Source of the DNA: Candidatus Saccharimonadota bacterium
GTDB taxonomy: Archaea > Micrarchaeota > Micrarchaeia > Micrarchaeales > Micrarchaeaceae
Direction of reading: 5' to 3'
DNA: 32,000 nt
Assembly: GCF_002214165.1 (NCBI RefSeq)
Contig: NZ_CP019964.1
Span: 690,001 to 722,000 of the forward strand
In this document: positions 1 through 28,422 of the stretch, piece by piece
Numbering within the stretch: position 1 is the first letter of the stretch
Layout of the letters: the number at the start of each line of letters is the position of its first letter
The notes under the pieces: generated by a model
Database searches by the model: none
What the model saw: the letters and a program-made list of their open reading frames with translations, nothing else
What the model was told of the DNA's origin: nothing
Position numbers and translations under genes: made by a program

Positions 1-2
1 TT

Positions 3-71
3 GCGATGGGATTGTCAAGAGGATTAAATTCCGGAATAGAGGGCGCTGCGTCGTTCTGGTCAGGAATATGA
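3..71 (+). CDS. Possible 3' end of an upstream gene cut by the window edge (reads ..AMGLSRGLNSGIEGAASFWSGI*); the frame choice is uncertain
   Basis: An open frame runs from the window edge to TGA at 69-71, just before the GAGGT Shine-Dalgarno of the next gene. Another frame stays open to TGA at 83-85 (ATGA overlap with the 82 start), so the real frame cannot be decided. The Gly/Ser-rich tail resembles the C-termini of the downstream membrane paralogs. Confidence 0.25.
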   Translation, partial: AMGLSRGLNSGIEGAASFWSGI

Positions 72-81
72 GGTTTAAAAA

Positions 82-1506
82 ATGATAGATACAATGCTTG
101 CGATAACGTCCTTTTCCAATACAAGGACAAACCTTATACCGCTTATAGCCCTGGCTATAGGCCTGGACGCATCGTTTGTGAGCATTTGGTACATATTGGG
201 CAGCCTGTTGAACAACAACTCGCTCAAGCAATCCGCAATAAACGAGATTTATCAGCTTTTTGGAAACATAATTATAGTAATATTGATAGTATTCCTTCTG
301 CTCGCGTTCAGCAGCATATTCTACAACTCGCTGCAGGGAACAAAGATGATGAACAGCACCACTATATACAGCATGTGCCAGAACATCAACAGCTCTTCGA
401 GCCTTTCAATACTAAATCCCAGCGATTCTGGCAGCGGCAGCTCCCTGCTTTATAGCGGCAAGTCGGGAAGTTTCCCTGGCTTATGCGAGATGGTCAAGAA
501 CCCGACGACGACAACTGAAAAGATAGACTACCCGGTTGCTACTTCAGCTGTGATACTTGCAAATTTGACAAACCAGACTTTTACAAACCTTAACTATCTG
601 TTCGGTGTCGAGGCTTACATTGGTTTCTTAAGCAAGCTTACACCCACTGATGCAATATGTACAGGTGAAATAGCTCCCCCTGACATAATACCGATTTCAT
701 GCGTGGTTCCATTTTCAAGCCTTCCTATACTGCTGTTCATAAGATCCCAATATACCCCCTTGTCAGGTTACAGCGCAATTTATTCAGGGCTGGCAACTTT
801 AGGGGGCTTGATTACTACTGCCATGGAGTCATTCACCGCCCAACTGCTTATAATAGTCTCATTCATTTACGTATGGCCAATACTTCTTTTCTTAGGGCTC
901 GCATTGAGGTCTGTATTCTTTACTAGAAGGATAGGGGGATTGTTTATAGCGCTAGCCGTTGCATTCATATTATTTTACCCTTCTGTAATGGCCCTTGAGT
1001 ACCTTAGCCTCAACCGTGTGGTTGCTCCGACTGATGTGCTTACAGTAAACAGTACAGTAGTAGGAAGCAATGTCATAGCGCCCGTATACAATTACACCGA
1101 TACCTCTTCAAACAAGTTGGGTAGCTTAGACTTCTTTGTTGAACCCAGCATAAAGAGCGTTGCGCAGTCAACATCCTGCTGGGCGGGGACAGGTTCGGGA
1201 TTGATATTGACAGAGTCTGGGATGATTCTTGAAACCGACTCTGTTTCAAACCTCGTAGATTTATATAAAGTTTTTGACGGTGGATTCGATGGGGATGTTG
1301 GGGCATACTCGTTAGGGCTCGCGACATGCAATGAACAAGGTGCAATAAGCACCCTTTTTGCTTCATTTGATATATATGGAATTATGGGCATAACTGCATA
1401 CCTGCTACCGATATTTAACATAATAATAGTTATTTCCGGAGTAGTTGGACTATCTGGAATGCTCGGAGGGGATACAAATTTGGCTGGATTGAGTAGATTG
1501 TTATGA
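82..1506 (+). CDS. Polytopic membrane protein, paralog 1 of a 4-member family (474 aa), with a large sequon- and Cys-containing extracytoplasmic loop; function unknown
   Basis: Long ORF with SD-like GAGGT at 70-74. It has many hydrophobic segments and Ser/Thr/Asn-rich loops with N-x-S/T sequons. Family motif RSVFFTRRIGGLFIALAVAFILFYP lies at nt 907-981. The stop overlaps the next start (ATGA at 1503-1506). Confidence 0.85.
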   Translation: MIDTMLAITSFSNTRTNLIPLIALAIGLDASFVSIWYILGSLLNNNSLKQSAINEIYQLFGNIIIVILIVFLLLAFSSIFYNSLQGTKMMNSTTIYSMCQNINSSSSLSILNPSDSGSGSSLLYSGKSGSFPGLCEMVKNPTTTTEKIDYPVATSAVILANLTNQTFTNLNYLFGVEAYIGFLSKLTPTDAICTGEIAPPDIIPISCVVPFSSLPILLFIRSQYTPLSGYSAIYSGLATLGGLITTAMESFTAQLLIIVSFIYVWPILLFLGLALRSVFFTRRIGGLFIALAVAFILFYPSVMALEYLSLNRVVAPTDVLTVNSTVVGSNVIAPVYNYTDTSSNKLGSLDFFVEPSIKSVAQSTSCWAGTGSGLILTESGMILETDSVSNLVDLYKVFDGGFDGDVGAYSLGLATCNEQGAISTLFASFDIYGIMGITAYLLPIFNIIIVISGVVGLSGMLGGDTNLAGLSRLL

Positions 1507-2615
1507 CAAGATTAAGATTTGCGGCGGTTGGCATTTCGCTGTTCTTAGTGTTATTCATGGAGCTTGGCACCGGATTTGCACCTGCAGCCACAACCAGTTA
1601 TCTGCCAGCCAACCTATGCGGGAGCATGTACAATGTGGCAGGGAATCCAACAGGGTTTGTAAAATATGAGAGCTTGACTGGCTTGTTGGCGATATCGCTC
1701 ATACTTTTGACCATAATGCTTCTCATCACTGGAGTACTGTGGGCATTTGGCGGTCTGCTGGAAATGCCAAAGCTGAAGGAGTCAGCAAGAAGCGAGATTG
1801 GTGAGGTACTACTCACAGGATTGATAGTTGTTATAATTTTAGGCTCGTTTTCGCTGACCAATTTTTCGGCAGGAGATGCCCTTCCCCTATCGAATGGGCT
1901 TTTCAGCTCGCGCATCTATTATGATGACTGCAATGTGATATTTACTGGGGTACAGAAAGGTATATCTGAAGATATAGGGCTTTTGGCTTATGACGATGTG
2001 GTTAAACTTATATCTTCTTTAACCTTGACAATCGAGCCTGGATATTTTGGCTATTCGTTCTCTCCATACGCCGGAATGGGTTATGGCAGCAATGTAATAG
2101 GAGTTACAATGAGCATAGTTGGAGGCGTAGTAATGCTTTCATTCGCAGGCATCTTAGTATTGAACTATGTGTTCATCATAATGCCAATATTCCTTTTCAT
2201 TGGCATTGTGCTTAGGACAATCCCCTGGACCAGACCGGCAGGAGGGGCTTTCATAGGCATGTTCATAGGGTTTTTCATACTGTTCCCCTTGCTTCTGCAT
2301 TTTATGATAGTGGGAAGCATACAGACAATCAACCTGGCCACGGTTTCATCAAGCACACCTACCAGCCTTCCTGGATTAAGCGGACTCACCAATGTGCTGA
2401 ATATAATGGGAGACATAGAGGGATATGTTAGTGATTTTTCAGGAGGAATTGCCGCAGTGAATTCGGTTATAACTGATATCATAGGGCCTTTACTTTATAT
2501 AATATTGTCGCTTTTAATAACACTTATAATTGCATTTGACTTTACAGATACTATGGGAGACCTTTTAGGCTCACCCAGCTTAAGTTCATCAGGAGGGTTG
2601 AAAAAGTTAGTGTAG
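1503..2615 (+). CDS. Polytopic membrane protein, paralog 2 (370 aa)
   Basis: Start overlaps the previous stop. N-terminal signal-anchor-like segment. Family motif RTIPWTRPAGGAFIGMFIGFFILFP at nt 2214-2288. Second shared motif ..SARSEIGEVLLTGLIVVI.. follows an early TM helix. Confidence 0.85.
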   Translation: MTRLRFAAVGISLFLVLFMELGTGFAPAATTSYLPANLCGSMYNVAGNPTGFVKYESLTGLLAISLILLTIMLLITGVLWAFGGLLEMPKLKESARSEIGEVLLTGLIVVIILGSFSLTNFSAGDALPLSNGLFSSRIYYDDCNVIFTGVQKGISEDIGLLAYDDVVKLISSLTLTIEPGYFGYSFSPYAGMGYGSNVIGVTMSIVGGVVMLSFAGILVLNYVFIIMPIFLFIGIVLRTIPWTRPAGGAFIGMFIGFFILFPLLLHFMIVGSIQTINLATVSSSTPTSLPGLSGLTNVLNIMGDIEGYVSDFSGGIAAVNSVITDIIGPLLYIILSLLITLIIAFDFTDTMGDLLGSPSLSSSGGLKKLV

Positions 2616-2649
2616 TAAATCAATAATGGATGTTTAAGAAGGTAAAAAA

Positions 2650-3828
2650 ATGTTTGGAAAAAACAAAAACCATGGGAAGTTTGCGATCGCGCTTCTGCTA
2701 GCATTAGCTTTAATTGGATCTGCATACTTGTTTGCCGTGCAGACTCCTATCGCATTTGCTGGCCCTGCCGGATATGGCGCTTCACCAAACAACGCCAACC
2801 TTGTTGCTGCCAATTCGGGAGTTGAAGGTTATGGTCTTGCCAGCAGGCTAAATGTACAGGAACTCTCATTGGTAAGTCCTACAGGATTCGCATCAAAATG
2901 GCTTGCTCTTGCCTTCATATTTGCAATATCTATTATAATGGTGGCAGTGTTCGTATATGAGATAAGCAACATATCCAACAGCACAAATGGGAAGATGTGG
3001 GCAAGGACACAGATCTATGAAGCGGTCCTTTCAATAATAATGCTGCTTATATTCATAGGCATAGGCTCAATACTTATGGTAAATCCAAAGGCGGCTTATA
3101 ATTCGGTAGGGTTGCTGCCTTTTCAGTGCAACACTGCGAGCATAAACACGATTTACAATTTGTCGGCATGTGATATGGGGACATTTAACTCAAATGTCGA
3201 TTCGCTTATCTATATAATATATGGATTTACATTCTCTTCTGGCCTTGAGCCTGGTTTTTCGGTAAGCGTGACTCCTTTGGGGATTGAGGGCCAGCAGAAA
3301 CTTTGGTCGGTATCTGGCGGAATTTCCAGCTTCATGCCCTCCTCTTCACTAGACATATATAGCTATGTTATAGTGGCACTGATAACACTATTGATACTCA
3401 ATTATGTTCAGATGATACTTTTGACAGGGTCCCTATTTTTCCTTGCGGTTTTTGTGAGCTTGGGGCTTGTATTGAGAGCATTGGGCTTTTCCAGGAGTTT
3501 TGGAGGATCATTAATAGCTCTTGGAGTGGGGCTGGGCATAATCTACCCTCTTCTCGTATCAATTTCATATGGATTCGTGGTTGCATCGCAGTCTGCCATA
3601 GTACTGCCATCCTTCAGCGCAATTTCCAGCTCCGACCCTCTTGCAATCGTAAGCAACTTCATAAGTTACATGTTCGGAGGGTACCTTGACTCAATAGGAT
3701 ATGTTTTGGTAGGACTTACATTCCTTCCATTCCTAAACTTCATAATACTTGATTCGTTTATGATAGACTTCTCTTCTGCGATAGGAGAGAGGATAGGTTT
3801 TATGTCATTGATGACTGGCTTGGTGTGA
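2650..3828 (+). CDS. Polytopic membrane protein, paralog 3 (392 aa)
   Basis: SD-like GAAGGT at 2638-2643. Signal-peptide-like N-terminus (..LIGSAYLFAVQTPIAFA/GPAG). Family motif RALGFSRSFGGSLIALGVGLGIIYP at nt 3475-3549. Confidence 0.85.
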   Translation: MFGKNKNHGKFAIALLLALALIGSAYLFAVQTPIAFAGPAGYGASPNNANLVAANSGVEGYGLASRLNVQELSLVSPTGFASKWLALAFIFAISIIMVAVFVYEISNISNSTNGKMWARTQIYEAVLSIIMLLIFIGIGSILMVNPKAAYNSVGLLPFQCNTASINTIYNLSACDMGTFNSNVDSLIYIIYGFTFSSGLEPGFSVSVTPLGIEGQQKLWSVSGGISSFMPSSSLDIYSYVIVALITLLILNYVQMILLTGSLFFLAVFVSLGLVLRALGFSRSFGGSLIALGVGLGIIYPLLVSISYGFVVASQSAIVLPSFSAISSSDPLAIVSNFISYMFGGYLDSIGYVLVGLTFLPFLNFIILDSFMIDFSSAIGERIGFMSLMTGLV

Positions 3829-3834
3829 TATTAT

Positions 3835-5019
3835 ATGAATAGGTTTTTTAAATTTACAATTCCGGCGCTTTTCTTGATTTTAGTCGTACTTCTGAGCTAT
3901 GGCTTAATCTATAACCAATTTAATAACACGCTGAAGTCAAATTACGGTTATGAAATATTGAATTTTGGAGGGGCTGGAGGGAGCTCTTCGAGCCAATGTG
4001 GCCTTGTCCCTTCTTCAATATCGAAAACGATATCAAGCAATGAACCTTGGTACTGTCCTATAAATGAGGAGATTTTCAATGACTGGCAGACTTATCTTCC
4101 TATAGCTGTGATAGTGCTTTTGATTGGGCTCTTTGTTGATATAATAATATTCGGTATAGGCGTAGCGCTCAAGAATGACAGAGTCAGGAACATTGGAGTT
4201 GGGGAGCTGTATGAAACCTTTGCCAGCGCTATAATAATCTTTTTGTTCCTTTACATATGTGCGGTTACCTTTGGACTTATTCCTGGCGTGTATGTAGGCA
4301 ACATAAACCCATATGCAACCGCTTTCCACCTGATGCTTACAACATCCAATTCTGTTGAGAAACTTTACACTGGCCTTTTCCATACTTACGCCATGGACAA
4401 GTTTATTACTTCAATTGAAATAAAATTTTATGGAAGCAACCTTGGGGATTTGGATTTGAATACTTATGGGCAATATATATACGGAGTAGCCTATACCCCT
4501 CTTGAGATCGGTTTCATAGAACCTGCAAGCTTCATTATGTCAATGCTCATAGATGGGACTGCAATTTTATACTCGGAGTATTATCTTCTTGTGTTCTTTT
4601 CTGTCAGCGCCATACCTGTGTTCATAATACCTGGAGTAATATTCAGGATAATACCTCCTACTAGGGGTCTTGGGGGAATGATGATTGCCCTTGGAATAGC
4701 ATTTTACTTGGTATTCCCAACCCTGTTTGCTGCAGTCTATTATTTCTCTTCAAGTTCATTTTTGACACAGATAAGTGTAGCTACACTGCAGGCGGAGCAG
4801 ATAAATTCGCAGGGAATCGCCTCTGCCAAGGGCTTCTCAAGCACAAGCCCTGCTGCTGAAAATCTAAGCAGCATACAATCAAGCATGAGTTCTTTCTGGC
4901 TACTGGTACTGTTCTACCCCGCACTGATAATTGCGGTATCCTACGCATTTGTGCAGACGATAGCGCAGTTCATAAGCGGATCGACATATTCAAGCCGTAG
5001 GATAAGAGGTTTCGTGTGA
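3835..5019 (+). CDS. Polytopic membrane protein, paralog 4 (394 aa)
   Basis: GGTG at 3822-3825 upstream of the ATG. N-terminal signal anchor. Family motif RIIPPTRGLGGMMIALGIAFYLVFP at nt 4645-4719. Confidence 0.85.
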   Translation: MNRFFKFTIPALFLILVVLLSYGLIYNQFNNTLKSNYGYEILNFGGAGGSSSSQCGLVPSSISKTISSNEPWYCPINEEIFNDWQTYLPIAVIVLLIGLFVDIIIFGIGVALKNDRVRNIGVGELYETFASAIIIFLFLYICAVTFGLIPGVYVGNINPYATAFHLMLTTSNSVEKLYTGLFHTYAMDKFITSIEIKFYGSNLGDLDLNTYGQYIYGVAYTPLEIGFIEPASFIMSMLIDGTAILYSEYYLLVFFSVSAIPVFIIPGVIFRIIPPTRGLGGMMIALGIAFYLVFPTLFAAVYYFSSSSFLTQISVATLQAEQINSQGIASAKGFSSTSPAAENLSSIQSSMSSFWLLVLFYPALIIAVSYAFVQTIAQFISGSTYSSRRIRGFV

Positions 5020-5119: not shown

Positions 5120-5953
5120 TTGAACAATAATATGTTATTTGGCATTGAATACGCTATTTCGATATTGTTCTTGGTTGCTGCAATAGTTATGCCATTGAGC
5201 ATTGGCGGCTATCTAGTCAAGATAATATTGTTTTTAATCGCCATGATCTTTGATGTCATAGCGTTCACCTCCCGTTATTATGCTTACTTATTTATACCGT
5301 TTATAAAAGGAAGAGGGAAGAGAGTGGTATTAAGCAATGAGGATGCATATTATCTCTCCGCATCTGCAGATTCTATATTGAAGAAGGTAGGTGACAAATT
5401 CATAGCTACTGTATATATCTTATTGCCCGTTTATACTTCTTCCACTGAAATGAATGACGACCAAAAGCTTGAGTTCACCCAGAAAGTTAGCAGGATGGTA
5501 GGGATTACACGCGACCCGGCAAGATTCACTACGGAGGTACTGATAATGAATAAGGATGACTACCTAAGAGAGCTTAAAGATGCGATTTCACAAGCGGACA
5601 ATGAAGTTGCACAGCTTAACCTTAACAAAAACCCGGACAAAAAAAGGATGGAGCATTATAAGGGTAAATCCGTTATGCTCAGAAACCTACTAAATGATAT
5701 GGGAAAGGTTACATCTTATGAAGAAATTTCTTATGTTACAGTATCGGCATACGGCTACAAAGAGTACGAAGCCGTAGCAAATGCACAGCAGAAAGCAAGG
5801 GAGCTTATATCAGGTATAAGCTCTGTTTTCGGTGTCCCTGTAAGCATAATCACAGGAAACGAGCTACTAAAGTTTGTTGAACCGGAATACCTTATACCAT
5901 ATGTTACGGTTACTACGCAGATGAACAGTGATTTGGAAAGCAAAGTGATATGA
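5120..5953 (+). CDS. Bitopic membrane protein, twin A (277 aa): two N-terminal TM helices plus a cytoplasmic alpha/beta and coiled-coil domain
   Basis: ORF starts at TTG 5120 (alternative ATG 5132). The hydrophobic N-terminus has two helices; the rest is charged and soluble. Its stop overlaps the next start (ATGA at 5950-5953). It is a paralog of the next gene. Confidence 0.75.
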   Translation: MNNNMLFGIEYAISILFLVAAIVMPLSIGGYLVKIILFLIAMIFDVIAFTSRYYAYLFIPFIKGRGKRVVLSNEDAYYLSASADSILKKVGDKFIATVYILLPVYTSSTEMNDDQKLEFTQKVSRMVGITRDPARFTTEVLIMNKDDYLRELKDAISQADNEVAQLNLNKNPDKKRMEHYKGKSVMLRNLLNDMGKVTSYEEISYVTVSAYGYKEYEAVANAQQKARELISGISSVFGVPVSIITGNELLKFVEPEYLIPYVTVTTQMNSDLESKVI

Positions 5954-6783
5954 TGGATGAAACTACGATGATTTATCTTGCACTTACGCTTGTGGTGCTT
6001 CTCCTTGCATTTGGGACAATTGGGAGCATTGCCAAGGGTATATATTATGACATAGCAATACTGCTTATCATTATAACCGCAGGCTTGATAGTGATAATCA
6101 GCCAAGTGGATTATGTTATGTTCACAATGCTTACCTCATTGTTGGGCACTACGATAAAACCTGCAAATAACTATATGATAAATAAAAAGCAGGATTCTAT
6201 AGTAAAAAATGTGAATAACCTTTATTATGCAACAGGATATGTAACTGCAAACCTGTTCCCTTACGTATTCAAGAATGAAAATCCTCCAGAAGATGAGGAG
6301 GATAGGATGAGCCAAGCGCCTGAGTTATGGGAAAATATAGTAAGGAGTCTTGGATTTCCATTCAAATTCCATGTTTTTTCAATAGGCCTTAATGTACAGG
6401 CTTCCAGGGACGAGCTTGAAGGGAAAAGGTCTTACCAAGAGTTCCAACTATCAAGGGCTTTGCAGGGAAATGCAAATGAGACAGTAATAACAAGCCTGCA
6501 GAGGCAGATAAGGATTCTGCAATCCAAGATAGATATGATATCTTCCGGAGAGAAACCTATAGCTACTATCATGTATATAGAGACGACTGCCGTGGGTATT
6601 ACCGATCAGGAAGCTCTTGATAAGCTTTCATCCCAAGTAACAGCCATACAGGTTGCGTTTAGCTCGTTTGATGTTGAACTCAGGAGGATAGTCGGGAGAG
6701 AATTATATGAAATATTCAAGTTCAACTTTGCACTCCCTCTTACAGTTAAAGATGCTTCAAGGCTGTTTGACCAGCAGGGTTGA
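5950..6783 (+). CDS. Bitopic membrane protein, twin B (277 aa), paralog of 5120..5953
   Basis: Same length and architecture as twin A. Alignable blocks: DSILKKVGDKFIATVYI vs DSIVKNVNNLYYATGYV, EISYVTVSAYG vs ATIMYIETTAVG, and ITGNELLKF vs IVGRELYEIFKF. Confidence 0.75.
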   Translation: MMDETTMIYLALTLVVLLLAFGTIGSIAKGIYYDIAILLIIITAGLIVIISQVDYVMFTMLTSLLGTTIKPANNYMINKKQDSIVKNVNNLYYATGYVTANLFPYVFKNENPPEDEEDRMSQAPELWENIVRSLGFPFKFHVFSIGLNVQASRDELEGKRSYQEFQLSRALQGNANETVITSLQRQIRILQSKIDMISSGEKPIATIMYIETTAVGITDQEALDKLSSQVTAIQVAFSSFDVELRRIVGRELYEIFKFNFALPLTVKDASRLFDQQG

Positions 6784-6798
6784 TTAGAAGATGATATT

Positions 6799-8316
6799 AT
6801 GTCTATTGTAAAGATGCAACACGTGATGAGCAATGAGGTGTCTAAGAGGTCATTTTTGTCAAGGCCTCCAGAGCCGCCGGCAAATATACTGCTTAATGAT
6901 CCTATGAATTCAATTTATATAGGCAATACCAAGATATTCAAGATCCCGTTCGCTTGGAATTTCGACAATGTCACCAACCCCCATATAGCAGTAGTGGGAA
7001 TAACAGGTGCAGGAAAGAGCTATTTTGTAAAGACCTTCCTGATAAGGGCAAACTATATATGGGATACGAATGCTGTGATAATAGACTGGGCTTCGGAGTA
7101 CAAGGCATGGGTACAGCAGAGCGGTGGCACAATACTTTCATTGGGGAAGGGGGACTATATCAATATCATGGACCTTGCAGGTATGAAGCCATTGGATAGG
7201 GTCAAGCAGATAATGGGCGCATTTGAGATACTTACGGATATCGCGTCTTATCCTGAACAGCGCAGGCTGACTGAAGAGGCTTTGGAGCAGGCTTACGCCA
7301 ATCTGGGCTTCAACTTGGCGGAAAGGCCGCCTGAAGGCAAGGATGCGCCGACGCTTAAGGATGGGATAGCCCTGCTTGAAGAGCAGCTTCAATCGGGAGG
7401 ATACCAGTACCCGGCAGAACTTGAAAATGCAATATATAGGCTTAGGCAGTTTGCGAGGCCAGGGGAGGACTTCTTCTCAAGGAAGAGCACTTTGGACATA
7501 GAAAAGATGGCTAATTCTGGATTGGTCGACATAGATCTTTCAGGATTGTCTGATGATACTTTTAGGGCATTGGCAGCATTGTTCATCTTGCAGACATTGA
7601 AAGAGAAAATGAGGTTTGAAGGTTTTGCCGAAACAAAAGGGATAAAGACCTTCGTGGTGCTTGATGAAGCTTGGAAGGTGGCCAGCGATGACAGAAGCGA
7701 TGCAATCACGATAGTCAGAGAGGGAAGGAAATACCAGTTCGGGCTCATAGTGGCATCCCAAAACCCCACGGATATTAATGAGGCGATATACTCAAACGTG
7801 GGCACTAACTTCATACTTAGGATAAAATTTGAAAGGTTCCTTGATTACATACAGGGCTCTTTGAACTTCTCGCCTTATATCAGAAGCGAGATAAGCAATT
7901 TCGGAGTAGGTCAAGCCGCTGTGGACATGTCATTCACAACATCGATGAGGTTCCCAAACATATTCGTTCTGGACAGGATAAAGGGTGAAGAGCCATTATA
8001 CATATACACAATAAACTTGACAGATGTGCTGACACAGGCAGAGGTTTCGGCCAACCTTCTCCCAAGAGATTACCAGTTTGAGGAAGATGAGCTCAAGAAC
8101 AAGATGATAAACTATAACGTCAGCGGGGACATAATAAACCAGCTGTTTAAGAAGCTGGACAGCCAGGGGAGGACCATAAACATGCTTGATTTCGTGAGAA
8201 CCCTTTACTCTTACCATCTTAGGGTGGCGGATATAATTGCGTTGCTGAAAAGCATGAGCATAGAGGACCTTCTCATAACAAGGATAATCTCCTCTTCAGG
8301 TGTAAGAAATGAGTGA
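6799..8316 (+). CDS. P-loop ATPase of the FtsK-HerA superfamily, VirB4/TrbE/CedB-like (505 aa)
   Basis: Walker A GITGAGKS at nt 6997-7020. Walker B VVLDEAW at nt 7654 onward. REGRKYQFGLIVASQNPTDI block. IIDWASEY and INIMDL blocks resemble the conjugative VirB4/TraC ATPase pattern (xIDpxGEY .. iNPl). No TM segment. Confidence 0.85.
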   Translation: MSIVKMQHVMSNEVSKRSFLSRPPEPPANILLNDPMNSIYIGNTKIFKIPFAWNFDNVTNPHIAVVGITGAGKSYFVKTFLIRANYIWDTNAVIIDWASEYKAWVQQSGGTILSLGKGDYINIMDLAGMKPLDRVKQIMGAFEILTDIASYPEQRRLTEEALEQAYANLGFNLAERPPEGKDAPTLKDGIALLEEQLQSGGYQYPAELENAIYRLRQFARPGEDFFSRKSTLDIEKMANSGLVDIDLSGLSDDTFRALAALFILQTLKEKMRFEGFAETKGIKTFVVLDEAWKVASDDRSDAITIVREGRKYQFGLIVASQNPTDINEAIYSNVGTNFILRIKFERFLDYIQGSLNFSPYIRSEISNFGVGQAAVDMSFTTSMRFPNIFVLDRIKGEEPLYIYTINLTDVLTQAEVSANLLPRDYQFEEDELKNKMINYNVSGDIINQLFKKLDSQGRTINMLDFVRTLYSYHLRVADIIALLKSMSIEDLLITRIISSSGVRNE

Positions 8317-8638
8317 ACAGAACTCTTATACGATAAGCAAGGCAGACCTCAGGAAACTGCTGATAAACTACAAGATTAGCGAGGACACTATCGCCCGGTT
8401 TTTTGGGGAGCTGGAAAAGTCCCATAGACATATAAATGCACTCGCGTTCGTATCGATATTGGAGAAGTCTGGAGTAGACTTAGATAATATTGTAAACATA
8501 TTGCGCCGCCTTGGTATGGATGACGTCAGGATAAATAATATACTGAATGATGAAGACGAACAGAAGCTTGCAGCAGAGCCAGGAAGGATATTCAATGCCT
8601 CAGTTGAATTCAGCGCAGAGGATGAAGTTAATGAGTAA
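8309..8638 (+). CDS. Small acidic protein (109 aa), paralogous to the C-terminal ~75 aa of the upstream ATPase
   Basis: Its start overlaps the ATPase stop (ATGAGTGA). LRKLLINYKISEDTIARFFGELEKSHRHINALAFVSIL..NIVNILRRLGMDD aligns with LKNKMINYNVSGDIINQLFKKLDSQGRTINMLDFVRTL..DIIALLKSMSIED of the ATPase tail. Confidence 0.7.
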   Translation: MSEQNSYTISKADLRKLLINYKISEDTIARFFGELEKSHRHINALAFVSILEKSGVDLDNIVNILRRLGMDDVRINNILNDEDEQKLAAEPGRIFNASVEFSAEDEVNE

Positions 8639-9032
8639 AAGCAGCATATCTAACAACAGGTGCATAATATGCGGCCAGCAGAAGCCAGGGTTGCATGTGA
8701 AAGATGATTTTGTACTGGATTCAATAAGATGGATCAAAAGGAACATAACCAAAAATGAAAAGGGGTACAAACTGGTAGTGTGTAAGGAGGATTACAAAAA
8801 ATACCTTAAAGAAAGGAACAAATATATAAGAAGGCAGATATTTTATATAGCGATAGGGATAGTGTTTGCGGCATTGCTGATAATAATGTCGGGTGGTTCG
8901 ATAGGTGCAATACTCTTTGGGCTTGCTATAATATTGCTGCTTTATCTGCTTTCGCTCCTTTCATATATTCCAGCAGTAGATCTTCCTGAAAAATTTGTAT
9001 CAAAGGATTTAAAAGGGAAATATGATAAATGA
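8631..9032 (+). CDS. Small membrane protein with an N-terminal CxxC..H..C segment and two C-terminal TM helices (about 133 aa)
   Basis: The track ORF 8547..9032 overlaps the previous gene for 90 nt. ATG 8631 (ATGAGTAA overlap with the stop at 8636-8638) or ATG 8622 is the likelier start. CIICGQQKPGLH...VVCKED is followed by a hydrophobic IFYIAIGIVFAALLIIMSGGSIGAILFGLAIILLLYLL segment. Confidence 0.6.
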   Translation: MSKSSISNNRCIICGQQKPGLHVKDDFVLDSIRWIKRNITKNEKGYKLVVCKEDYKKYLKERNKYIRRQIFYIAIGIVFAALLIIMSGGSIGAILFGLAIILLLYLLSLLSYIPAVDLPEKFVSKDLKGKYDK

Positions 9033-9058: not shown

Positions 9059-9790
9059 ATGCCTGAATCTATGGGGATAATAAAACCTAAAGTAAAAGAA
9101 TTCTACTTAAATAGCAGGTTAGTTGGAAGTTTCGACGATATGCTCGGCAGGTTTTCTGATGTAAAGACATTTATATCGAAAAAGCAGCAGGACAATTCAT
9201 TAGTTTTAGTCTCTATAGAGAGCAGGGATATGCAGAAGAATCCTTTCCTGTTCATAGTTCTTGTATTCAAGCCTGATTCTATAACTGTGCAGTATTCTAT
9301 ACCGCTGGACAGCAGCGAAAAGATGAGAAAGATTTATGTTATAAGGGCTGTGCTTGAGCTGCTTGCACTCGTTACAGACCTATATATTGTAGACCAGAGT
9401 GCACTTTATACTTATATCAATTCTTCTATAGATGATATATTGGGCTCATTAAGTCAAAGCTACAGTTCGTTGTTCAATAGCTATGATTCGTTGTTCAGCG
9501 AATTCAGGGAAATACGCAGGCTTAACCTTGAGCTTCAAAATTCGAATAAAACGCTTACAGCAAAAGCGGTCCAGATGGAAGACGAGAATAAAAGGCTTAA
9601 TGAGCAGCTGGATCAGCTGCATAAGTATTCCGACCAGGCTTTGATGGTTATGGTCGAGGATTGGATAGACGAGCATAACAACACAATAGACTTGGATGCG
9701 TTTTCCAATACGCACCACATACCAATATCAAGAGTCGAGCAGATACTTAACAAGATGGTCACGGAAGGTTACATATCCATACAGGGATGA
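9059..9790 (+). CDS. Cytoplasmic protein (243 aa): N-terminal alpha/beta region, central coiled coil, C-terminal winged-helix-like module
   Basis: SD AGGTG at 9046-9050. Heptad-like segment LNLELQNSNKTLTAKAVQMEDENKRLNEQLDQL. The C-terminus HHIPISRVEQILNKMVTEGYISIQG looks like the recognition helix and wing of a wHTH. Confidence 0.7.
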   Translation: MPESMGIIKPKVKEFYLNSRLVGSFDDMLGRFSDVKTFISKKQQDNSLVLVSIESRDMQKNPFLFIVLVFKPDSITVQYSIPLDSSEKMRKIYVIRAVLELLALVTDLYIVDQSALYTYINSSIDDILGSLSQSYSSLFNSYDSLFSEFREIRRLNLELQNSNKTLTAKAVQMEDENKRLNEQLDQLHKYSDQALMVMVEDWIDEHNNTIDLDAFSNTHHIPISRVEQILNKMVTEGYISIQG

Positions 9791-9930
9791 ATATGATATA
9801 CAATGTCAGGGTAAATCAAAAGCTTAAATATGTAAGAGTCTACCGAATAGTTAAAAGGCTCTCGAAAGGAGAAAACGGCTTGACAAAACTTTTCGTAAAA
9901 CTGTTTGCAAAAAAGGGGAATACGGAGTGA
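9787..9930 (+). CDS. Unlisted micro-ORF (47 aa, very basic): MNMIYNVRVNQKLKYVRVYRIVKRLSKGENGLTKLFVKLFAKKGNTE
   Basis: ATG 9787 overlaps the upstream stop (ATGA at 9787-9790). Its stop at 9928-9930 lies 7 nt before the next start and inside that gene's SD-like GGAGTGA. It fills an otherwise empty gap in a tightly packed operon. It is below the size cutoff of the ORF track. Confidence 0.35.
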   Translation: MNMIYNVRVNQKLKYVRVYRIVKRLSKGENGLTKLFVKLFAKKGNTE

Positions 9931-9937
9931 TGGCTGA

Positions 9938-12328
9938 ATGAAAAAGAAGATAGCTATTTTAATTTTAGTCGTGGTCATGGCAATAATCTTTGCAGGGATA
10001 TTTGCTTATCTCTCCAGTCTCTTCGCACAGCTAAAGCCTCCTGCGCCTCCAGTATTGAAATATATAGCGCCTAGTGAAAATGTGTACCTTACAGGGCAAA
10101 ATCTGCTGTTTTACAATTATAGCTACGACATCATGCCTTACACTCTTTTGGACTATGCAGCATCAAATGTAACCGGGCTGTACATCAATGAATCGATATT
10201 GCAGAAATCCCCTCCTTCCTACAACGAGATATACATATTGAATTATACTAATGACTGCTTGTCATGCTCCAACCCGACCGCGGAAGTAAGCTATATTACC
10301 AATGACCTTATAAAATACAGAATCATAAGCAATTACAGCCAAGTTCAGGTTGTGTCCGCTTCACAGGTTGCTTCTTTACCAAATAACTCCATACTAATAA
10401 TAATGAACGGGAGGCTCCCAATATCAATGATGGGCAACTATAGCTTGTCGGACAACAATCCGCAATTGGCAAGGCAATACAATGAAAGCAATACCTCTGT
10501 AATCGGATATGCATTGATGAAAGGCATTTCAATAATCTATATAGGGAATGATTTTTCAAGCTTAGTTGGGCCTGGAGATATCGTGGTCCCGGATAGCAGG
10601 ATGCCCTCTTATCTTTCAACTTCCGGTGTTTCGCCGCTGCCAAAAGAAAATGGATTCTATTTTACAAACAGGACTTTTGTATTTAATAATGGAAGAACGT
10701 ATGGGCCTGTATCATATACCTATGTTTATAACGGTACTATAATTGCATTCTCCAATTACCTCAGTTCATGGCCTTCATTGAACGATTCCGCTTACGATAT
10801 AGCTAAGTCAATATCCCAATTGTACTGGATCCCCACTTATATATCTGGAACAGCTACGGTAAATGTTGGATTGAACAATGTGGTGTCAGGATCTGAAGGA
10901 GTATTTTTGAACAGCAGCACCTTGGGCTATTCATACCCCCTAATAAAAAAGCTGAATTCCGGGATAATAAGAATAGTCGCCTATACCAATAGCACCTATG
11001 GATTTGGGAATGGATCAATCTATAACTATCTTACTTATAAACCGGATTACAAGGTATACGGAAAATTGGGCATACAGAATAACATCGTAGCGGGATCCAC
11101 AGATCCTGTTGATATGGACATTTTCACCAATTCATCAACAAATGTAAATATAGTCCCCCATCTGGCAATATACTATACCAACATGACCAAATTTGAGGAT
11201 ATATACCTTACATCTTTTGAAGCCTCGGGCAACTTTTCCTTGATACAGTACAAGACATTTACACTACCTCCAGGACAGTATATAGCGATTCTAAGGAACG
11301 ACCTCGATTTTGACTATGCCTCTGCATTATTCACGGTCCCTCCCATTTCGGTAACCCTGTCTCCGTATTTCACAAAAAATGTGTTCACCTTCACTGTATA
11401 TTCACAGGGTAAGCCAATCTCTGGAATTCCATACTCAATAAACGTCGATGGCAAATATACACAGAATGGAACAGTGGAGAACGGTGTAATAAATTATACC
11501 TTGCCTAAGACTGCACCAAAGCTTACAACTAAATCCACGTTTAACCTAAATATGCTTTCTACGGATTTTGTAAACACTGCAACACCGCCAACATTCCATA
11601 TAAACTCTGAATACATAGAAGCCGGAATTGTATTCCTTGTCGCTTTCATAGTCATAGTATTTGTGCATCCGGCACCAAGAGACGAATTTTATATTGATGT
11701 GTCAAATCTGCCAGTAGCCAAAAAACAGGACATACGTTTAAAGGACATAGATCTGATTGGAGCATTTGACAAGCTTAATACTTATTACCATTGGAGGTAT
11801 ATGCCTTTGACAGTGCATGAGTTCAGGACCGCTGTATCAAATTACATCCGCTCCAACAATATACCTGTGAACCTTACTCTGAACAACATCAATACGATAC
11901 TTACACAGATGGTAGAGAAGAACGAATTGGTTTCTGTAAGAGATCTTTATGCGCCAAAATCATGGATCACATTGAGCAAGCATGACATTGCATATCTGGC
12001 CATATTCAAGGAGCTTAGGATGTTCATGATATCGCATGCGATAACCTTTACAGACCTGGATAGCAACGACAAGGCAGACATGGTAATAGCAATGAAGGAC
12101 CAGAAGGCGAATATAATAATTTATTCGAAGACATCAAAATTCAAGGAGGTATCTATAACTCCAGGATTAAAGACCTTTATAGTATTCTTGAGCGAGGAGG
12201 AGCTGAATAAGTTCAAGGAAACTGTTTACAGTGTGTCCTCTTATGATATGGATCTTTTCAGGATTTACCTATCTTCAGGGTTGGTAAAATTGGTGAGCTT
12301 GGACAACCTAAATGACCTGCTCTCCTGA
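9938..12328 (+). CDS. Large bitopic surface protein (796 aa): signal anchor, ~525-aa sequon-rich ectodomain, TM helix, ~220-aa cytoplasmic tail with a winged-helix-like module
   Basis: N-terminal hydrophobic helix at aa 5-30. I count 20 N-x-S/T sequons by hand between aa 60 and 521. Second TM EAGIVFLVAFIVIVFV at about nt 11612-11668. The cytoplasmic tail contains NNIPVNLTLNNINTILTQMVEKNELVSV. Confidence 0.8.
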   Translation: MKKKIAILILVVVMAIIFAGIFAYLSSLFAQLKPPAPPVLKYIAPSENVYLTGQNLLFYNYSYDIMPYTLLDYAASNVTGLYINESILQKSPPSYNEIYILNYTNDCLSCSNPTAEVSYITNDLIKYRIISNYSQVQVVSASQVASLPNNSILIIMNGRLPISMMGNYSLSDNNPQLARQYNESNTSVIGYALMKGISIIYIGNDFSSLVGPGDIVVPDSRMPSYLSTSGVSPLPKENGFYFTNRTFVFNNGRTYGPVSYTYVYNGTIIAFSNYLSSWPSLNDSAYDIAKSISQLYWIPTYISGTATVNVGLNNVVSGSEGVFLNSSTLGYSYPLIKKLNSGIIRIVAYTNSTYGFGNGSIYNYLTYKPDYKVYGKLGIQNNIVAGSTDPVDMDIFTNSSTNVNIVPHLAIYYTNMTKFEDIYLTSFEASGNFSLIQYKTFTLPPGQYIAILRNDLDFDYASALFTVPPISVTLSPYFTKNVFTFTVYSQGKPISGIPYSINVDGKYTQNGTVENGVINYTLPKTAPKLTTKSTFNLNMLSTDFVNTATPPTFHINSEYIEAGIVFLVAFIVIVFVHPAPRDEFYIDVSNLPVAKKQDIRLKDIDLIGAFDKLNTYYHWRYMPLTVHEFRTAVSNYIRSNNIPVNLTLNNINTILTQMVEKNELVSVRDLYAPKSWITLSKHDIAYLAIFKELRMFMISHAITFTDLDSNDKADMVIAMKDQKANIIIYSKTSKFKEVSITPGLKTFIVFLSEEELNKFKETVYSVSSYDMDLFRIYLSSGLVKLVSLDNLNDLLS

Positions 12329-14677: not shown

Positions 14678-16465
14678 ATGATCAATATGGCAACGTTAAC
14701 TGATGCTAAATTAAATTCCAAAGTTGAGATTACAGGAATCTCATTCTCATTAGGAAGCTATTCTATATCAAGCAGGGATAAGGTAAGTTCTATCGTTGAT
14801 AGCAGTAGGCTTAAGGATGAGACAGACAAGGTTGTGCTTGGGCTTGGAATAAACCGCACGAGCGTTGCCGCAAAAGGCGAAGATGTGATAACGAATGCGG
14901 CACTTGCGATAATAAAGCTTATAGTATCTTACAATGTTGATACCTCAAAGGTATCGAATGTGGTTATAGCAACTGAAACTCCTCACGATATATCACAGAG
15001 CATGGCAAACCCCGTATTGAAATTGACAAACAAGCTTATAGACAAGCTAAACAACAATGGATACAACATAAAGCATCTTAATCCCGAGATAGGAATGCAT
15101 GTGCAATCCGCCTGCACATCGGCCGGATCTGCTATATCAAGTTATGCAATAAATGGGCTCAGTGGATATGCGATAATAGTTGCAACAGACAATGCAGAGT
15201 ATAAGCTCGGAACTGCTGCAGATGAAACAGGAGGTTTTGGATCAGTTGCGGTGTTGCTTGAGCCATATGAGAAAGGCAAAAAAGGGATAGTTCTTCTTGA
15301 TAAAATAGGGCATTACTCTGATGAGGTTCCCGATTTCATAAAGGTTATCTTTGATGACAATTATTCGTCTTCTGGGCTAAGCTTGGTGGCCAGATATCCG
15401 ATAGTTTTTGGCAAATTCTCAGAAGAGGCTTATTCCCTTGCCATATTTGAGGCTCTTAAAAGGATATCTGAGAATACCGGAATACCTATAAATAACCGGA
15501 AGATGCTTGAGAGCTATGACCTAATATCACATCTTCCATATCCGAAGATACCTGAAAAGCTGCTTGCATATCTTATAAGGCACTTGAGCAGGACTGACAG
15601 CAGCTTGAAAGAGGATCTTTCTGTTGATTTGGGCATCCTCAATTCTTCAGGCACGATGTTAAAAGAGAGCTTTCTTCCTGGATTCGACAGTTTGGAAGAC
15701 GAGTTCAAATTTATAATAAAATTTGAGAGCCTTTACAACAATGCTGTCGGCCTTTCTTCCGAGATAAAAGGCAGGATGTCTGAGAGGAAGAATGAGATGG
15801 ATTCATTTTTAAATGCAGGAAATACCAAGGATGAAGTGAAAAGCATAATCTGGGAAATCGAAAACATAAGTTCGGAATTCGAATCAAATACGGATATATT
15901 GGAATTGCTTGGAAATTGCAAGGAATCTTTCTTGATGCTATTGGAAAGTGATAAGATTGGCGAAAAGGACATAGAAAATGCCTTCAAGCCAATAATGGAT
16001 GTCATAAACGAATTTGAAAAAGAGGACAATGTATATAACAAGAGCATACGGTCGTCAAAAATATTCAAGCAGATAAAAGAGGAGCTACACATAGAGGAAG
16101 CTGTGAAGCTTTCAAAGGAGATAGGCAATATATACACAGGCTCAATATTGATAGGGTTGGTTAGCTATCTAACCAACGTTAAAAAGCCTAAGAACAACCT
16201 TCTGCTGACATTTTATGGAAGCGGATTTGAGTCGTATGTGATAGAGGCAATTCCTAATATAGATGAAAACTTTATCTCCCTGCTTGACAGGAATGTAGAG
16301 AATGAATTTGCAAGGCAGAGGATAATAGATGGGGAGACTTATATAAAAATAAGAAAAAACGCGTATGATGATGCCAAAATACCACTGTCAAGGGACAACA
16401 TATTCAGGGTAGATTTCATAAATGAAGGGGAATTCCTTGATGAGATTAAAAAATATAAAAATTAG
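14678..16465 (+). CDS. HMG-CoA-synthase-like thiolase-fold enzyme with a large internal insertion (595 aa)
   Basis: Blocks match the bacterial/eukaryal-type HMGS pattern: LGLGINRTSVA, GEDVITNAA, VVIATETPHDISQS (Glu), HVQSACTSAGSAI (Cys), IIVATDNAEYKLGTAADETGGFGSVAVLLEP, LISHLPYPKIPEK (His), EIGNIYTGSILIGLVSYL, LLTFYGSGFES. Confidence 0.75.
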   Translation: MINMATLTDAKLNSKVEITGISFSLGSYSISSRDKVSSIVDSSRLKDETDKVVLGLGINRTSVAAKGEDVITNAALAIIKLIVSYNVDTSKVSNVVIATETPHDISQSMANPVLKLTNKLIDKLNNNGYNIKHLNPEIGMHVQSACTSAGSAISSYAINGLSGYAIIVATDNAEYKLGTAADETGGFGSVAVLLEPYEKGKKGIVLLDKIGHYSDEVPDFIKVIFDDNYSSSGLSLVARYPIVFGKFSEEAYSLAIFEALKRISENTGIPINNRKMLESYDLISHLPYPKIPEKLLAYLIRHLSRTDSSLKEDLSVDLGILNSSGTMLKESFLPGFDSLEDEFKFIIKFESLYNNAVGLSSEIKGRMSERKNEMDSFLNAGNTKDEVKSIIWEIENISSEFESNTDILELLGNCKESFLMLLESDKIGEKDIENAFKPIMDVINEFEKEDNVYNKSIRSSKIFKQIKEELHIEEAVKLSKEIGNIYTGSILIGLVSYLTNVKKPKNNLLLTFYGSGFESYVIEAIPNIDENFISLLDRNVENEFARQRIIDGETYIKIRKNAYDDAKIPLSRDNIFRVDFINEGEFLDEIKKYKN

Positions 16466-17444: not shown

Positions 17445-18506
17445 ATGGCAAAAATTTATGTTTTAAGGTTAGGGCACAGGCCAAAAAGGGATAAGAGGGT
17501 GACTACGCATGTTGGGCTTGTTGCAAGAACCTTCGGCGCTGACAGATTTGTTCTTGTTGGGTCGGACAGCAAAGTAGTATCTGGGCTAAATAGTGTATCG
17601 AATAGATGGGGAGATGGAAAATTTGAAGCTACTTCTACTAAAGACGCGAAAAAATATGTTGAGCAATGGAAAAAATCTGGAGGTATTATTGTACACCTTA
17701 CAATGTATGGCTTGAACTTGTCTGGATTTGATATGAACAAGGTTAGAGGCAAAGACTTATTGGTTGTAGTAGGTGCTGAAAAAGTTGAACCTTGGTATTA
17801 TGAGAATGCTGATTATAATATCGCAGTTGCCAATCAGCCGCACAGTGAAGTTTCCGCATTGGCCATGTTTCTTGATAGGTATTATCAGGGAAGGGAACTT
17901 GATAAAGGTTATACCTCAAAGCTTTCGATAAAACCGATGGAAAATGGCAAATATGTGACTTTAATACCTAATGAGTTGGAATGCATCGATATACTCAAAA
18001 ATGAAAAGGTAGATGATAAATTGCTGCTCCATTCAAAGGCTGTTTATGAATTGGCTGTTGAAATTGGAAAGAGGGCCAACGCAAACCTTAATCTTATAAC
18101 AGCAGGTGCATTGCTTCATGACATAGGCAGGAGCAAGGCAAATGGCTTGGATCATGGGCACATAGGGGCAGAGATCCTAAGGAAAAAGAGGGTAAATGAG
18201 AAGGTTGCAAGAATAGTGGAAAGGCATATAGGAGCTGGATTGACAAAAGAGGATGTGGTAAAAAATGGCCTATACATACCTAAAAAGAACTATGTCCCGA
18301 TCACATATGTCCCGATCACATTGGAGGAAAAGATAGTGGCGGAAGCTAACAACCTTATTTATGGCTCAAAAAGAGTAAGAATAGAAAAAACGATTGAACG
18401 TTATAAAAAAGAGGGGTTGAATAACTCAGCTGAACACATATTGAAGCTCCATAAGGAACTATCAAAAAAGTGCAAAATTGACTTGGACGACCTGTGTACG
18501 GATTAA
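17445..18506 (+). CDS. trm56: tRNA Cm56 2'-O-methyltransferase (aTrm56, SPOUT) fused to a C-terminal HD-domain phosphohydrolase (353 aa)
   Basis: N-terminal VLRLGHRPKRDKRVTTHVGLVARTFGAD .. HLTMYG .. VVVGAEKV .. ADYNIAVANQPHSEVSALA is the aTrm56 pattern. The C-terminal half has H..(x27)..LLHDIGRS .. ERHIGAG (HD/HDIG-type). Confidence 0.8.
   Translation: MAKIYVLRLGHRPKRDKRVTTHVGLVARTFGADRFVLVGSDSKVVSGLNSVSNRWGDGKFEATSTKDAKKYVEQWKKSGGIIVHLTMYGLNLSGFDMNKVRGKDLLVVVGAEKVEPWYYENADYNIAVANQPHSEVSALAMFLDRYYQGRELDKGYTSKLSIKPMENGKYVTLIPNELECIDILKNEKVDDKLLLHSKAVYELAVEIGKRANANLNLITAGALLHDIGRSKANGLDHGHIGAEILRKKRVNEKVARIVERHIGAGLTKEDVVKNGLYIPKKNYVPITYVPITLEEKIVAEANNLIYGSKRVRIEKTIERYKKEGLNNSAEHILKLHKELSKKCKIDLDDLCTD
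18291..18320 (+). repeat. Perfect in-frame 15-bp tandem duplication inside the HD domain
   Basis: TATGTCCCGATCACA occurs at 18291-18305 and again at 18306-18320, encoding YVPIT-YVPIT. Confidence 0.95.
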
Positions 18507-22688: not shown

Positions 22689-22691
22689 TAA

Positions 22692-22776
22692 TGCAGGGAG
22701 TGAGATTTGAACTCACGAACCCCTACGGGAATGGGCCCTAAACCCACCGCATTTGGCCATACTTTGCTATCCCTGC
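22692..22776 (-). tRNA. tRNA-Leu (anticodon TAG), class II with a long variable arm
   Basis: The reverse complement folds as acceptor GCAGGGA/TCCCTGC, anticodon stem GTGGG/CCCAT, loop TTTAGGG (anticodon TAG), variable arm TCCCGTAGGGGTTC, T arm GTGAG-TTCAAAT-CTCAC, discriminator A. No encoded CCA. Confidence 0.9.
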
Positions 22777-22785
22777 ACTAAAAAT

Positions 22786-28120: not shown

Positions 28121-28207
28121 CCCGTTGTAGCTCAATGGTAGAGCGGCCGGCTGTAGCCTGTGTAGAAAGAAACCGGCAGGTTGGGTGTTCAAATCACTCC
28201 AACGGGA
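28121..28207 (+). tRNA. tRNA-Tyr (anticodon GTA) with a 15-nt intron at the canonical 37/38 position
   Basis: Acceptor CCCGTTG/CAACGGG (C1:G72, the archaeal/eukaryal Tyr identity pair). D arm GCTC-AATGGTA-GAGC. Anticodon stem GCCGG/CCGGC enclosing 22 nt (CTGTAG + 15 nt + A). T arm GGGTG-TTCAAAT-CACTC. Discriminator A, no CCA. Confidence 0.85.
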
Positions 28208-28325: not shown

Positions 28326-28422
28326 CCTATTTTAGAGATTTTTATGCTAATATAATTTGGCACTAAATTCAAAATATGCTTGATACACAAACGCATATGT
28401 TGAAAATGAAAGCAATAAATAA

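Follow-up and report, generated by a model that had tools for sequence, protein, structure and literature searches.

The DNA analysed here is a window of 32,000 nt (contig NZ_CP019964.1, positions 690,001 to 722,000) from Candidatus Mancarchaeum acidiphilum, a member of the Micrarchaeota within the DPANN archaea and an ectosymbiont of Cuniculiplasma (PMC5498576). Its subject is a tandem array of paralogous genes for polytopic membrane proteins, designated P1 to P6, which forms part of a conserved operon. The window opens inside this operon, and four complete members of the array are found in it, all on the forward strand, with the positions and lengths given in the initial annotation: P3 (ORF1, 474 aa) at 82–1506, P4 (ORF2, 370 aa) at 1503–2615, P5 (ORF3, 392 aa) at 2650–3828 and P6 (ORF4, 394 aa) at 3835–5019. 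The start of P4 overlaps the stop of P3 by 4 nt. The window edge cuts P2 (full length 385 aa), leaving its 3′-end at nt 1–70 (forward strand), as seen from a reading of nt 1–120 and from contig L095, which shares with the window an identical stretch of 15,019 nt, nt 1 of the window being nt 6167 of L095. Upstream of the window, L095 carries genes for a 134-aa pilin-like protein and a 243-aa polytopic protein, followed by P1 (448 aa) and P2. The tandem arrangement had been correctly recognised, but the count of four falls short, as there are six members and the array runs upstream of the window. The membership of the array in an operon of about 16 genes kept across Micrarchaeota, and the identity of the organism as a DPANN symbiont, had both been missed. 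The ORF3 and ORF4 products are identical to public entries from Candidatus Mancarchaeum acidiphilum annotated as 'multipass membrane protein'.

The whole cluster spans about 15 kb of a 0.95 Mb genome, and the order is pilin-like gene, m243, P1 to P6, A277, B277, an ATPase gene and five more genes. All of its open reading frames (ORFs) are intact. The flanking genes are housekeeping genes (Topo VI-B, KH protein, aTrm56, L10 and Cdc48). No relaxase, coupling protein or integrase was found in the cluster by Pfam searches and a survey of the flanks, and genes for VirB5, VirB7 to VirB10 and VirB11 are likewise missing from it.

That P3 to P6 are diverged paralogs is supported by composition-adjusted pairwise BLASTP, with E-values of 3e-8 for ORF1 and ORF2, 1e-8 over 275 columns for ORF2 and ORF3, and 2e-5 for ORF3 and ORF4; all six pairs give E-values of 5.5e-4 or less in a small database. 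Identity between paralogs is about 25% and is concentrated around a signature segment, motif 1, which lies exactly where it had been placed in all four proteins: RSVFFTRRIGGLFIALAVAFILFYP in P3 (907–981), RTIPWTRPAGGAFIGMFIGFFILFP in P4 (2214–2288), RALGFSRSFGGSLIALGVGLGIIYP in P5 (3475–3549) and RIIPPTRGLGGMMIALGIAFYLVFP in P6 (4645–4719), all on the forward strand. R276, R282, G285, G286, I289 and P300 (ORF1 numbering) are invariant in the four-way alignment, and R282, G285, G286 and P300 are still invariant in a 63-sequence family alignment. The motif is unlikely to be a chance product of hydrophobic low-complexity sequence, since the pattern R-x5-R-xx-GG arose in only 4 to 10 of 10,000 shuffles of each protein (probability 4e-4 to 1e-3), and each of ORF1 to ORF4 contains just 5 to 8 arginines. 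P1 has the form RAFPTLRGIGG, and in P2 the motif is degenerate. Among orthologs, motif 1 is retained in 44 of 45 P1, 45 of 53 P3, 52 of 53 P4, 47 of 55 P5 and 58 of 58 P6 proteins, and the canonical form occurs in none of 50 P2 orthologs.

The remaining shared features described in the initial annotation held in part. Motif 2, in which a charged turn runs into a helix, is real but weaker than motif 1, with a near-invariant Tyr (Y123, 92%) and E/Q positions at 51–56%. The short C-terminal tail does end in a hydrophobic residue, which is I, V or L in >90% of P3 to P6 orthologs (53 to 58 orthologs each), but it is better described as [K/R/G/S/N]-hydrophobic-[I/V/L]-COOH than as Gly plus hydrophobic residues, and P1 orthologs end in K-[L/I]-A. 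A large loop with N-x-S/T sequons had been attributed to all four proteins, and a few Cys to most of them; the distribution is uneven, as P3, which has the biggest extracellular loops, carries six sequons and five loop Cys, and the other three proteins have zero to one sequon.

Each paralog in the window has its own line of 1:1 orthologs in distant Micrarchaeota, with 35–51% identity (for P3, 37–38% in Micrarchaeota loci L001 and L003), against about 25% between paralogs, which argues from sequence comparison that the sixfold duplication is older than the micrarchaeal radiation. An exhaustive search with a hidden Markov model of the family recovered 2,976 clusters (50% identity) at an E-value of 1e-3 or less, 471 of them at 1e-30 or less, and the array was found beside the ATPase gene in 52 loci. 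Most of the 'two-stretch' matches in this search, considered as possible tandem fusions, were rejected as such and are large loop insertions. One protein, P0152 (901 aa), appears to be a P2–P3 fusion, the only one seen.

The proposal that the P proteins belong to no named family stood up to searching. No Pfam or NCBIfam model matches P1 to P6 at an E-value of 0.1 or less, and there is no PHROG or PADLOC match; on these searches, membership of a well-known transporter family or other named family was rejected. Sequence searches of the PDB with 4- and 63-sequence profiles returned chance matches only (Rtt109, E-value 1.8; PilE1, E-value 0.35).

P5 was modelled with AlphaFold2 from the 63-sequence alignment (predicted local distance difference test score, pLDDT, 79.9; predicted template modelling score 0.72). 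The model consists of an N-terminal signal peptide or transmembrane (TM) helix, a disordered outside segment and seven long helices (residues 77–109, 112–142, 168–198, 231–259, 261–277, 279–315 and 330–378), with a small β-hairpin in the first outside loop. Motif 1 forms a helix-break-helix turn, in which R276 closes helix 261–277 and R282, G285 and G286 start helix 279–315. Basic residues are found at three sites, namely motif 2, which is the turn that joins helices 1 and 2, the motif 1 helix break, and the C-terminal tail, and the sequons and Cys of the P proteins sit in two long loops. The three conserved elements are therefore predicted to be cytoplasmic and the variable loops to be outside. 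Hydropathy, the positive-inside rule, the placement of sequons and Cys, and the AlphaFold2 helices together predict for each P protein an N-terminal signal or TM helix and a core with the N-terminus out, five spans, the C-terminus in and two outside loops, in agreement with the suggestion that motif 1 lies at a membrane interface. Column conservation confirms the Arg..Arg-x-x-Gly-Gly segment as the best-conserved feature of the family (motif 1 turn, 0.72; C-terminal tail, 0.56; motif 2 turn, 0.54) and is lower in the second outside loop (0.27) and the N-terminal region (0.15). Motif 1 had been proposed to serve gating, lipid binding or partner binding; because all three conserved elements come together on the side predicted to be cytoplasmic, partner docking would be favoured. 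In P3 orthologs the second outside loop can be enlarged by insertions of up to ~500 residues, and P5-type proteins have N-terminal extensions of 200–500 residues; examples of these expansions are P0225, P0235, P0150, P0176 and L078 (1482–4409).

VirB6, the polytopic inner membrane component of type IV secretion systems (T4SSs), has its N-terminus outside, a large exoplasmic loop and a cytoplasmic C-terminus. The comparison with VirB6, TrbL and CedA suggested in the initial annotation proved a good lead, as the R388 TrwI/VirB6 protein was the sole standout fold match when the P5 model was compared with 350,542 PDB chains using Foldseek. The top match was 8rtd_L (probability 0.85, E-value 0.22, template modelling (TM) scores 0.31/0.40, root-mean-square deviation (rmsd) 8.9, 319 columns), a chain of 268 residues from the R388 'Stalk-Arches-IMC' structure that is TrwI/VirB6 by its length. 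Chain 7o3v_J (VirB5-VirB6 stalk) and two further 8rtd chains were also matched, and nearly all remaining matches have a probability <0.3 and most an rmsd >20. Like the P proteins, VirB6/TrwI (TrbL family), of ~350 aa, is polytopic and very hydrophobic. Published VirB6 is built of seven long helices, of which five are hydrophobic, and forms a pentameric base for VirB2 pilin assembly (PMC9259494). The P5 model resembles it in helix count and hydrophobicity pattern and is predicted, like VirB6, to have a large exoplasmic part beyond the first two helices, and virB6 is encoded beside genes for a VirB4 ATPase and a VirB2 pilin, as is the P array, if the sub-threshold pilin candidate of the operon is accepted. 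The two differ in that R-x5-R-xx-GG is confined to the P family and a conserved Trp region to VirB6, and in that VirB6 is a homo-pentamer encoded by one gene whereas six fixed paralogs are present here.

The ATPase gene (6799–8316, forward strand) encodes a 505-aa P-loop protein with intact Walker A (GITGAGKS) and Walker B (VVLDEAW) motifs and no TM segments. Pfam matches to DUF87 (64.8 bits, 1.6e-17), AAA_10 (49.1 bits) and P-loop_TraG (37.2 bits) are all over the cut-offs, and on sequence the protein is a motor of the FtsK/HerA/VirB4 superfamily. The whole ATPase domain aligns end to end with NCBIfam models of VirB4/TraC type, and does so too with 4ag5, the structure of the C-terminal domain of VirB4, and with the TraC genes of 380 plasmids, among them 199 conjugative ones; alignments to HerA are mostly partial. 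The VirB4 N-terminal domain (PF03135, CagE_TrbE_VirB) has no match in the protein in Pfam searches, and the curated NCBIfam cut-offs for VirB4/TraC are missed (32–60 bits vs 325–1177). The best NCBIfam models are CedB (67.3 bits vs a cut-off of 700) and CedD (62.5 vs 600), and because the CedB score falls so far short, the protein is judged not to be an ortholog of CedB. A defence system was considered and rejected, as the ATPase alone matches HerA-type models, and only at superfamily level.

Between the P array and the ATPase gene are A277 (5120–5953) and B277 (5950–6783), on the same strand, with overlapping start and stop codons. Each predicts an N-terminal TM hairpin of two helices followed by a soluble α/β domain of ~215 aa, and the two proteins are weak mutual paralogs (cross-genome BLASTP 2e-4), which by sequence is a second tandem duplication in the same operon. 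Searches of Pfam, in which 60 orthologs were scanned, and of PDB sequences gave nothing consistent. The AlphaFold2 model of B277 (pLDDT 79.4) matched chains of the R388 T4SS in Foldseek, with 8rtd_h, 8rtd_P and 8rtb_B at ranks 2–4 (probability 0.77–0.91, E-value 0.02–0.04, rmsd 6.5–7.1) and 8rtd_g at rank 17 (probability 0.44, E-value 0.18, rmsd 7.8). The R388 chains matched have 457–760 residues, a size that fits TrwK/VirB4, so that their identity as VirB4 is by length. Rank 1 was a MacAB-TolC chain with an rmsd of 24.

The 134-aa protein encoded at the head of the operon combines a signal peptide with two hydrophobic helices that flank a short basic loop. Its ortholog in L001 matches Pfam TrbC/VirB2 (PF04956) below threshold (20.2 bits, cut-off 27.9, E-value 6.8e-4), and this match spans positions 17–97 of 98 in the model. 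The copy in L003 has no TrbC/VirB2 match in Pfam, and comparisons of the pilin-candidate profile with the PDB and with R46 TrbC were negative.

The five genes downstream of the ATPase gene are all transcribed in the same direction. A 109-aa soluble protein (8309–8638) resembles the C-terminal extension of the ATPase, being similar to its residues 431–498 (37% identity, E-value 5e-10, between the L001 ATPase and the 109-aa ORF), and is apparently a C-terminal module that was duplicated or became detached. A 133-aa protein (8631–9032, with the start as called in L095; the longest ORF would begin at 8547) has a TM hairpin and an N-terminus that is basic and rich in Cys. It is followed by a 243-aa coiled-coil protein with one hydrophobic segment (9059–9790) and by a very basic 47-aa protein (MNMIYNVRVNQKLKYVRVYRIVKR...; 9787–9930), conserved in the cluster and present in L003 and L095 as well, which is short enough for gene callers to miss. 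The final gene of the conserved cluster (9938–12328) encodes a 796-aa protein predicted to cross the membrane twice, with ~520 residues and their 20 N-x-S/T sequons outside between the two TM segments and a cytoplasmic tail of 214 aa after the second. It has no family match and is a candidate surface or host-contact component.

When the cluster ATPase was used as query against GTDB, each species being represented by one genome, it was found in 190 species genomes. The best 80 of these 190 genomes, in which the ATPase is 64–87% identical, are all labelled Micrarchaeota, a few evidently mis-binned metagenome-assembled genomes apart, and they include the cultivated A_DKE and ARM-1. The genes labelled m213/243, P1 to P6, A277, B277, ATPase, s102, s140, c243 and big796 keep one order in every one of the 52 loci whose upstream sequence is long enough, and contigs ending inside the array show the same partial order. 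The housekeeping neighbourhood (Topo VI-B and the KH protein) is the same in many species-level genomes, and no variation in the copy number of the P array was seen among the loci examined. In ARM-1 (L072, 1–21494), the half of the cluster from the ATPase to big796 is not preceded by P1 to P6 or by A277 and B277, and in L045, L058, L059 and L063 the ATPase half likewise lacks a preceding P array; c243 and big796 are relocated upstream in L058, L059 and L063. No viral contig in IMG/VR carries a relative of the cluster. A search of the accessible literature on Micrarchaeota and DPANN found no description of the cluster or of the P family. In the Mia14 genome paper, type IV pili are listed along with Sec and Tat, and the main text is silent on the operon (PMC5498576), and there is no mention of it in the A_DKE and ARM-1 papers, or of DPANN in the paper describing Ced and Ted (PMC9905601).

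Elsewhere in the window, a 353-aa ORF (17445–18506, forward strand) fuses the tRNA 2′-O-methyltransferase aTrm56 to an HD phosphohydrolase domain. A 595-aa ORF (14678–16465, forward strand) has weak matches to the N- and C-domains of HMG-CoA synthase (about 1e-9 to 1e-10); it is far longer than a typical HMG-CoA synthase, and the genome is said to lack most biosynthesis. The tRNA calls are a tRNA-Leu at 22691–22777 (reverse strand; ARAGORN call only), an 87-nt tRNA at 28121–28207 (forward strand; Rfam, 59.9 bits), for which ARAGORN does not name the anticodon and an intron is probable, and after it a tRNA-Asp at 28254–28327. A TnpB/Cas12f-like, transposase-associated IS605 OrfB protein with HTH_OrfB, OrfB_IS605 and TNB domains is encoded at 29462–30718 (forward strand).

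The closest parallels to the cluster are chromosomal systems derived from T4SSs. Ced (Sulfolobales and Desulfurococcales) and Ted (Thermoproteales) are DNA importers composed of CedA/TedA, CedA1/TedC and CedB/TedB, and they provide the precedent for a machine with VirB2, VirB6 and VirB4 parts only; Ced imports DNA (PMC9905601). They are domesticated, minimal T4SS derivatives encoded on archaeal chromosomes, as is proposed for the micrarchaeal cluster, and they combine a pilin with a VirB6-like membrane protein and an ATPase of VirB4 type and lack a relaxase and a coupling protein (PMC9905601). They differ in having a single CedA/TedA gene in place of six paralogs. In the micrarchaeal cluster, unlike Ced and Ted, the VirB4 N-terminal part is apparently split into two separate membrane proteins, and the host lineage is an obligate DPANN ectosymbiont rather than a free-living crenarchaeon. 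The P proteins have no NCBIfam match, but a CedA model is perhaps absent from that collection, and CedA/TedA were compared by description only. The MPF-FATA-like T4SS of Patescibacteria (candidate phyla radiation) is, as here, phylum-wide, chromosomal, without relaxase and present in host-dependent cells of ultrasmall size; its genes for VirB4, VirB6 and a VirB3-like protein lie together (PMC12102498), and one Saccharibacteria strain reportedly cannot grow as an epibiont without it (PMC12102498). It is bacterial, however, its parts are detected by standard VirB6/PrgH/PrgI profiles, and it has no sixfold paralog array. In another DPANN lineage, the giant nanohaloarchaeal 'SPEARE' proteins contain a VirB4/TraG-like ATPase domain proposed to act in host interaction, but this is fused to a giant surface protein of immunoglobulin-like repeats, which the ATPase of the cluster is not (PMC10266531). 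Alongside SPEARE there is a VirB4 that has the canonical N-domain (PF03135), and no P-family array is described there (PMC10266531).

On balance, we lean towards P1 to P6 being the VirB6-equivalent membrane platform or channel of a chromosomal, Ced/Ted-like apparatus derived from a T4SS. This reading is drawn from the VirB4-type motor, the pilin-shaped first gene, the R388 matches of two components and the chromosomal location without a relaxase, so that the link to a T4SS comes from genomic context and weak fold matches. Several results weigh against it. The fold matches have E-values of 0.22 for P5 and 0.02–0.04 for B277 (TM scores 0.3–0.4), none reaching 0.001, and the part of VirB4 aligned with B277 is not visible in the Foldseek output, while hhalign of B277 against R46 VirB4 was negative. 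Every sequence and profile comparison of the P proteins with VirB6 was also negative. Pfam and NCBIfam show no sequence link, and the 63-sequence P profile finds no VirB6 in the PDB. Hhalign gave a probability of 0.16 against a 10-sequence MPF_T VirB6 alignment and 0.3 for the 63-sequence profile against R46 TraD (VirB6) alone, in tests that used shallow alignments (effective number of sequences 3.8–4.7) without secondary structure and so are not a strong negative. The VirB6 alignment was built from plasmid proteins, with R46 and pMAK3 in place of R388 itself (BR000038), pMAK3 (IncW) being named as the R388 clone (PMC9259494), and it contains no counterpart of the signature motif of the P family. 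The pilin candidate of Mancarchaeum itself has no TrbC match in Pfam, in ARM-1 and about five other genomes the P array and the ATPase gene are apart, and a VirB6 homo-pentamer is a different architecture from six distinct P subunits. The HerA, mad8 and DndH defence models score the ATPase (1e-16 to 1e-18) as strongly as those of VirB4 and CedB do, so the VirB4 assignment comes from alignment coverage and context. The same evidence would fit P1 to P6 being unrelated to VirB6 and forming the translocon of some other FtsK/HerA-driven pump, such as a DNA or polymer importer specific to Micrarchaeota, with the likeness to a T4SS due to convergence of helical bundles. We regard this as rather unlikely, but as a serious alternative. 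Against it, R388 T4SS chains are among the top PDB matches of two independent components out of 350,542 chains, the pilin-shaped gene heading the operon has in L001 a near-full-length TrbC/VirB2 match, VirB4/TraC is matched over the full length of the ATPase domain and HerA mostly over part of it, and the helix count and hydrophobicity pattern of the model fit those published for VirB6. Components of Ced and Ted have no mutual sequence similarity and could be linked only through HHpred (PMC9905601), so the negative VirB6 profile tests are not decisive; membership of the P family in the VirB6 family is not demonstrated.

Two other explanations concern the role and origin of the array. The paralogs could be surface or envelope proteins (adhesins, anchors of a surface layer or glycoprotein scaffolds) whose loops vary for host recognition, with the ATPase belonging to something separate. 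The extracellular loops are indeed the most variable parts, with the long insertions and N-terminal extensions noted above, P3 loops are supplied with sequons and Cys, and the array stands apart from the ATPase gene in a few genomes. The strongest conservation is nevertheless in the predicted cytoplasmic face and the membrane helices and not outside, and in about 50 genomes orthology is strictly 1:1 and gene order is fixed, with overlapping start and stop codons leading on to the ATPase gene. Fixed order and 1:1 orthology thus point to one obligate complex rather than a variable repertoire of adhesins, and the constant copy number is in keeping with this; a surface role of this kind is considered very unlikely. 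That the cluster is the remnant of an integrated conjugative plasmid, without a cellular role, is extremely improbable. Archaeal VirB4-type ATPases were first known from conjugative plasmids (PMC12102498), and the TnpB gene lies ~17 kb downstream of the cluster, but all ORFs are intact, the housekeeping neighbourhood recurs in many species genomes with an ATPase that is 64–87% identical, and neither an integrase, relaxase or coupling protein in the cluster nor an IMG/VR match was found. A mobile-element or viral origin was rejected on the same absence of IMG/VR relatives, integrase and relaxase, together with the housekeeping flanks.

If P1 to P6 are the platform of a T4SS-derived apparatus, its working may be outlined as follows. 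The six proteins, each encoded by one gene of an apparently co-transcribed operon, would assemble into a single hetero-oligomer, as suggested by the common operon, the shared conserved cytoplasmic face and the divergent outer faces. This hetero-oligomer would replace the VirB6 homo-pentamer, recruit the VirB2-like pilin and form a conduit, with the variable, glycosylatable loops facing outwards. The cytoplasmic turns of motifs 1 and 2 and the C-terminal tails would dock on an ATPase module made up of the 505-aa VirB4-like motor together with A277 and B277, in which a VirB3-like hairpin may be fused to a fold like that of the VirB4 N-domain and supplied in trans. By analogy, the substrate would most likely be DNA or macromolecules of another kind passing between the symbiont and its Thermoplasmatales host, because Ced is a DNA importer and a Saccharibacteria strain is reported to require its T4SS for epibiotic growth. 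Six distinct paralogs argue for a stoichiometry unlike that of the VirB6 homo-pentamer. A more specific form, in which one copy of each paralog makes a pseudo-symmetric hetero-hexameric ring matching a hexameric ATPase, as the core of a micrarchaeal contact organelle that takes up host DNA or macromolecules, is distinctly unlikely as it stands. Such an organelle could be, for example, the barrel-like structure of 21 nm seen in the envelope by cryo-electron tomography of ARM-1 co-cultures, which docks host nanotubes and has no genes assigned to it (PMC11329633).

The cluster is core to Micrarchaeota, with its ATPase in 190 species genomes and its gene order fixed, and it is not mobile, is membrane-embedded and shows the hallmarks of a conjugation-derived translocator. 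To our knowledge, no machine for the transfer of material between DPANN archaea and their hosts has been assigned to genes, though DPANN archaea need physical contact with a host. The cluster provides a testable candidate for host interaction in three cultivated systems (Mia14/Cuniculiplasma, A_DKE/Scheffleriplasma and ARM-1/Metallosphaera), and the P family adds ~3,000 clusters that have no Pfam or NCBIfam entry. If the T4SS-derived reading is right, the Ced/Ted type of domesticated T4SS would extend from Crenarchaeota to DPANN, and the VirB6 platform would be built in a new way, from six fixed paralogs and with the VirB4 N-domain split off. Should the hetero-hexameric ring also prove true, it would amount to a descendant of a T4SS that was rebuilt from paralogs and turned to the needs of an obligate archaeal symbiosis.

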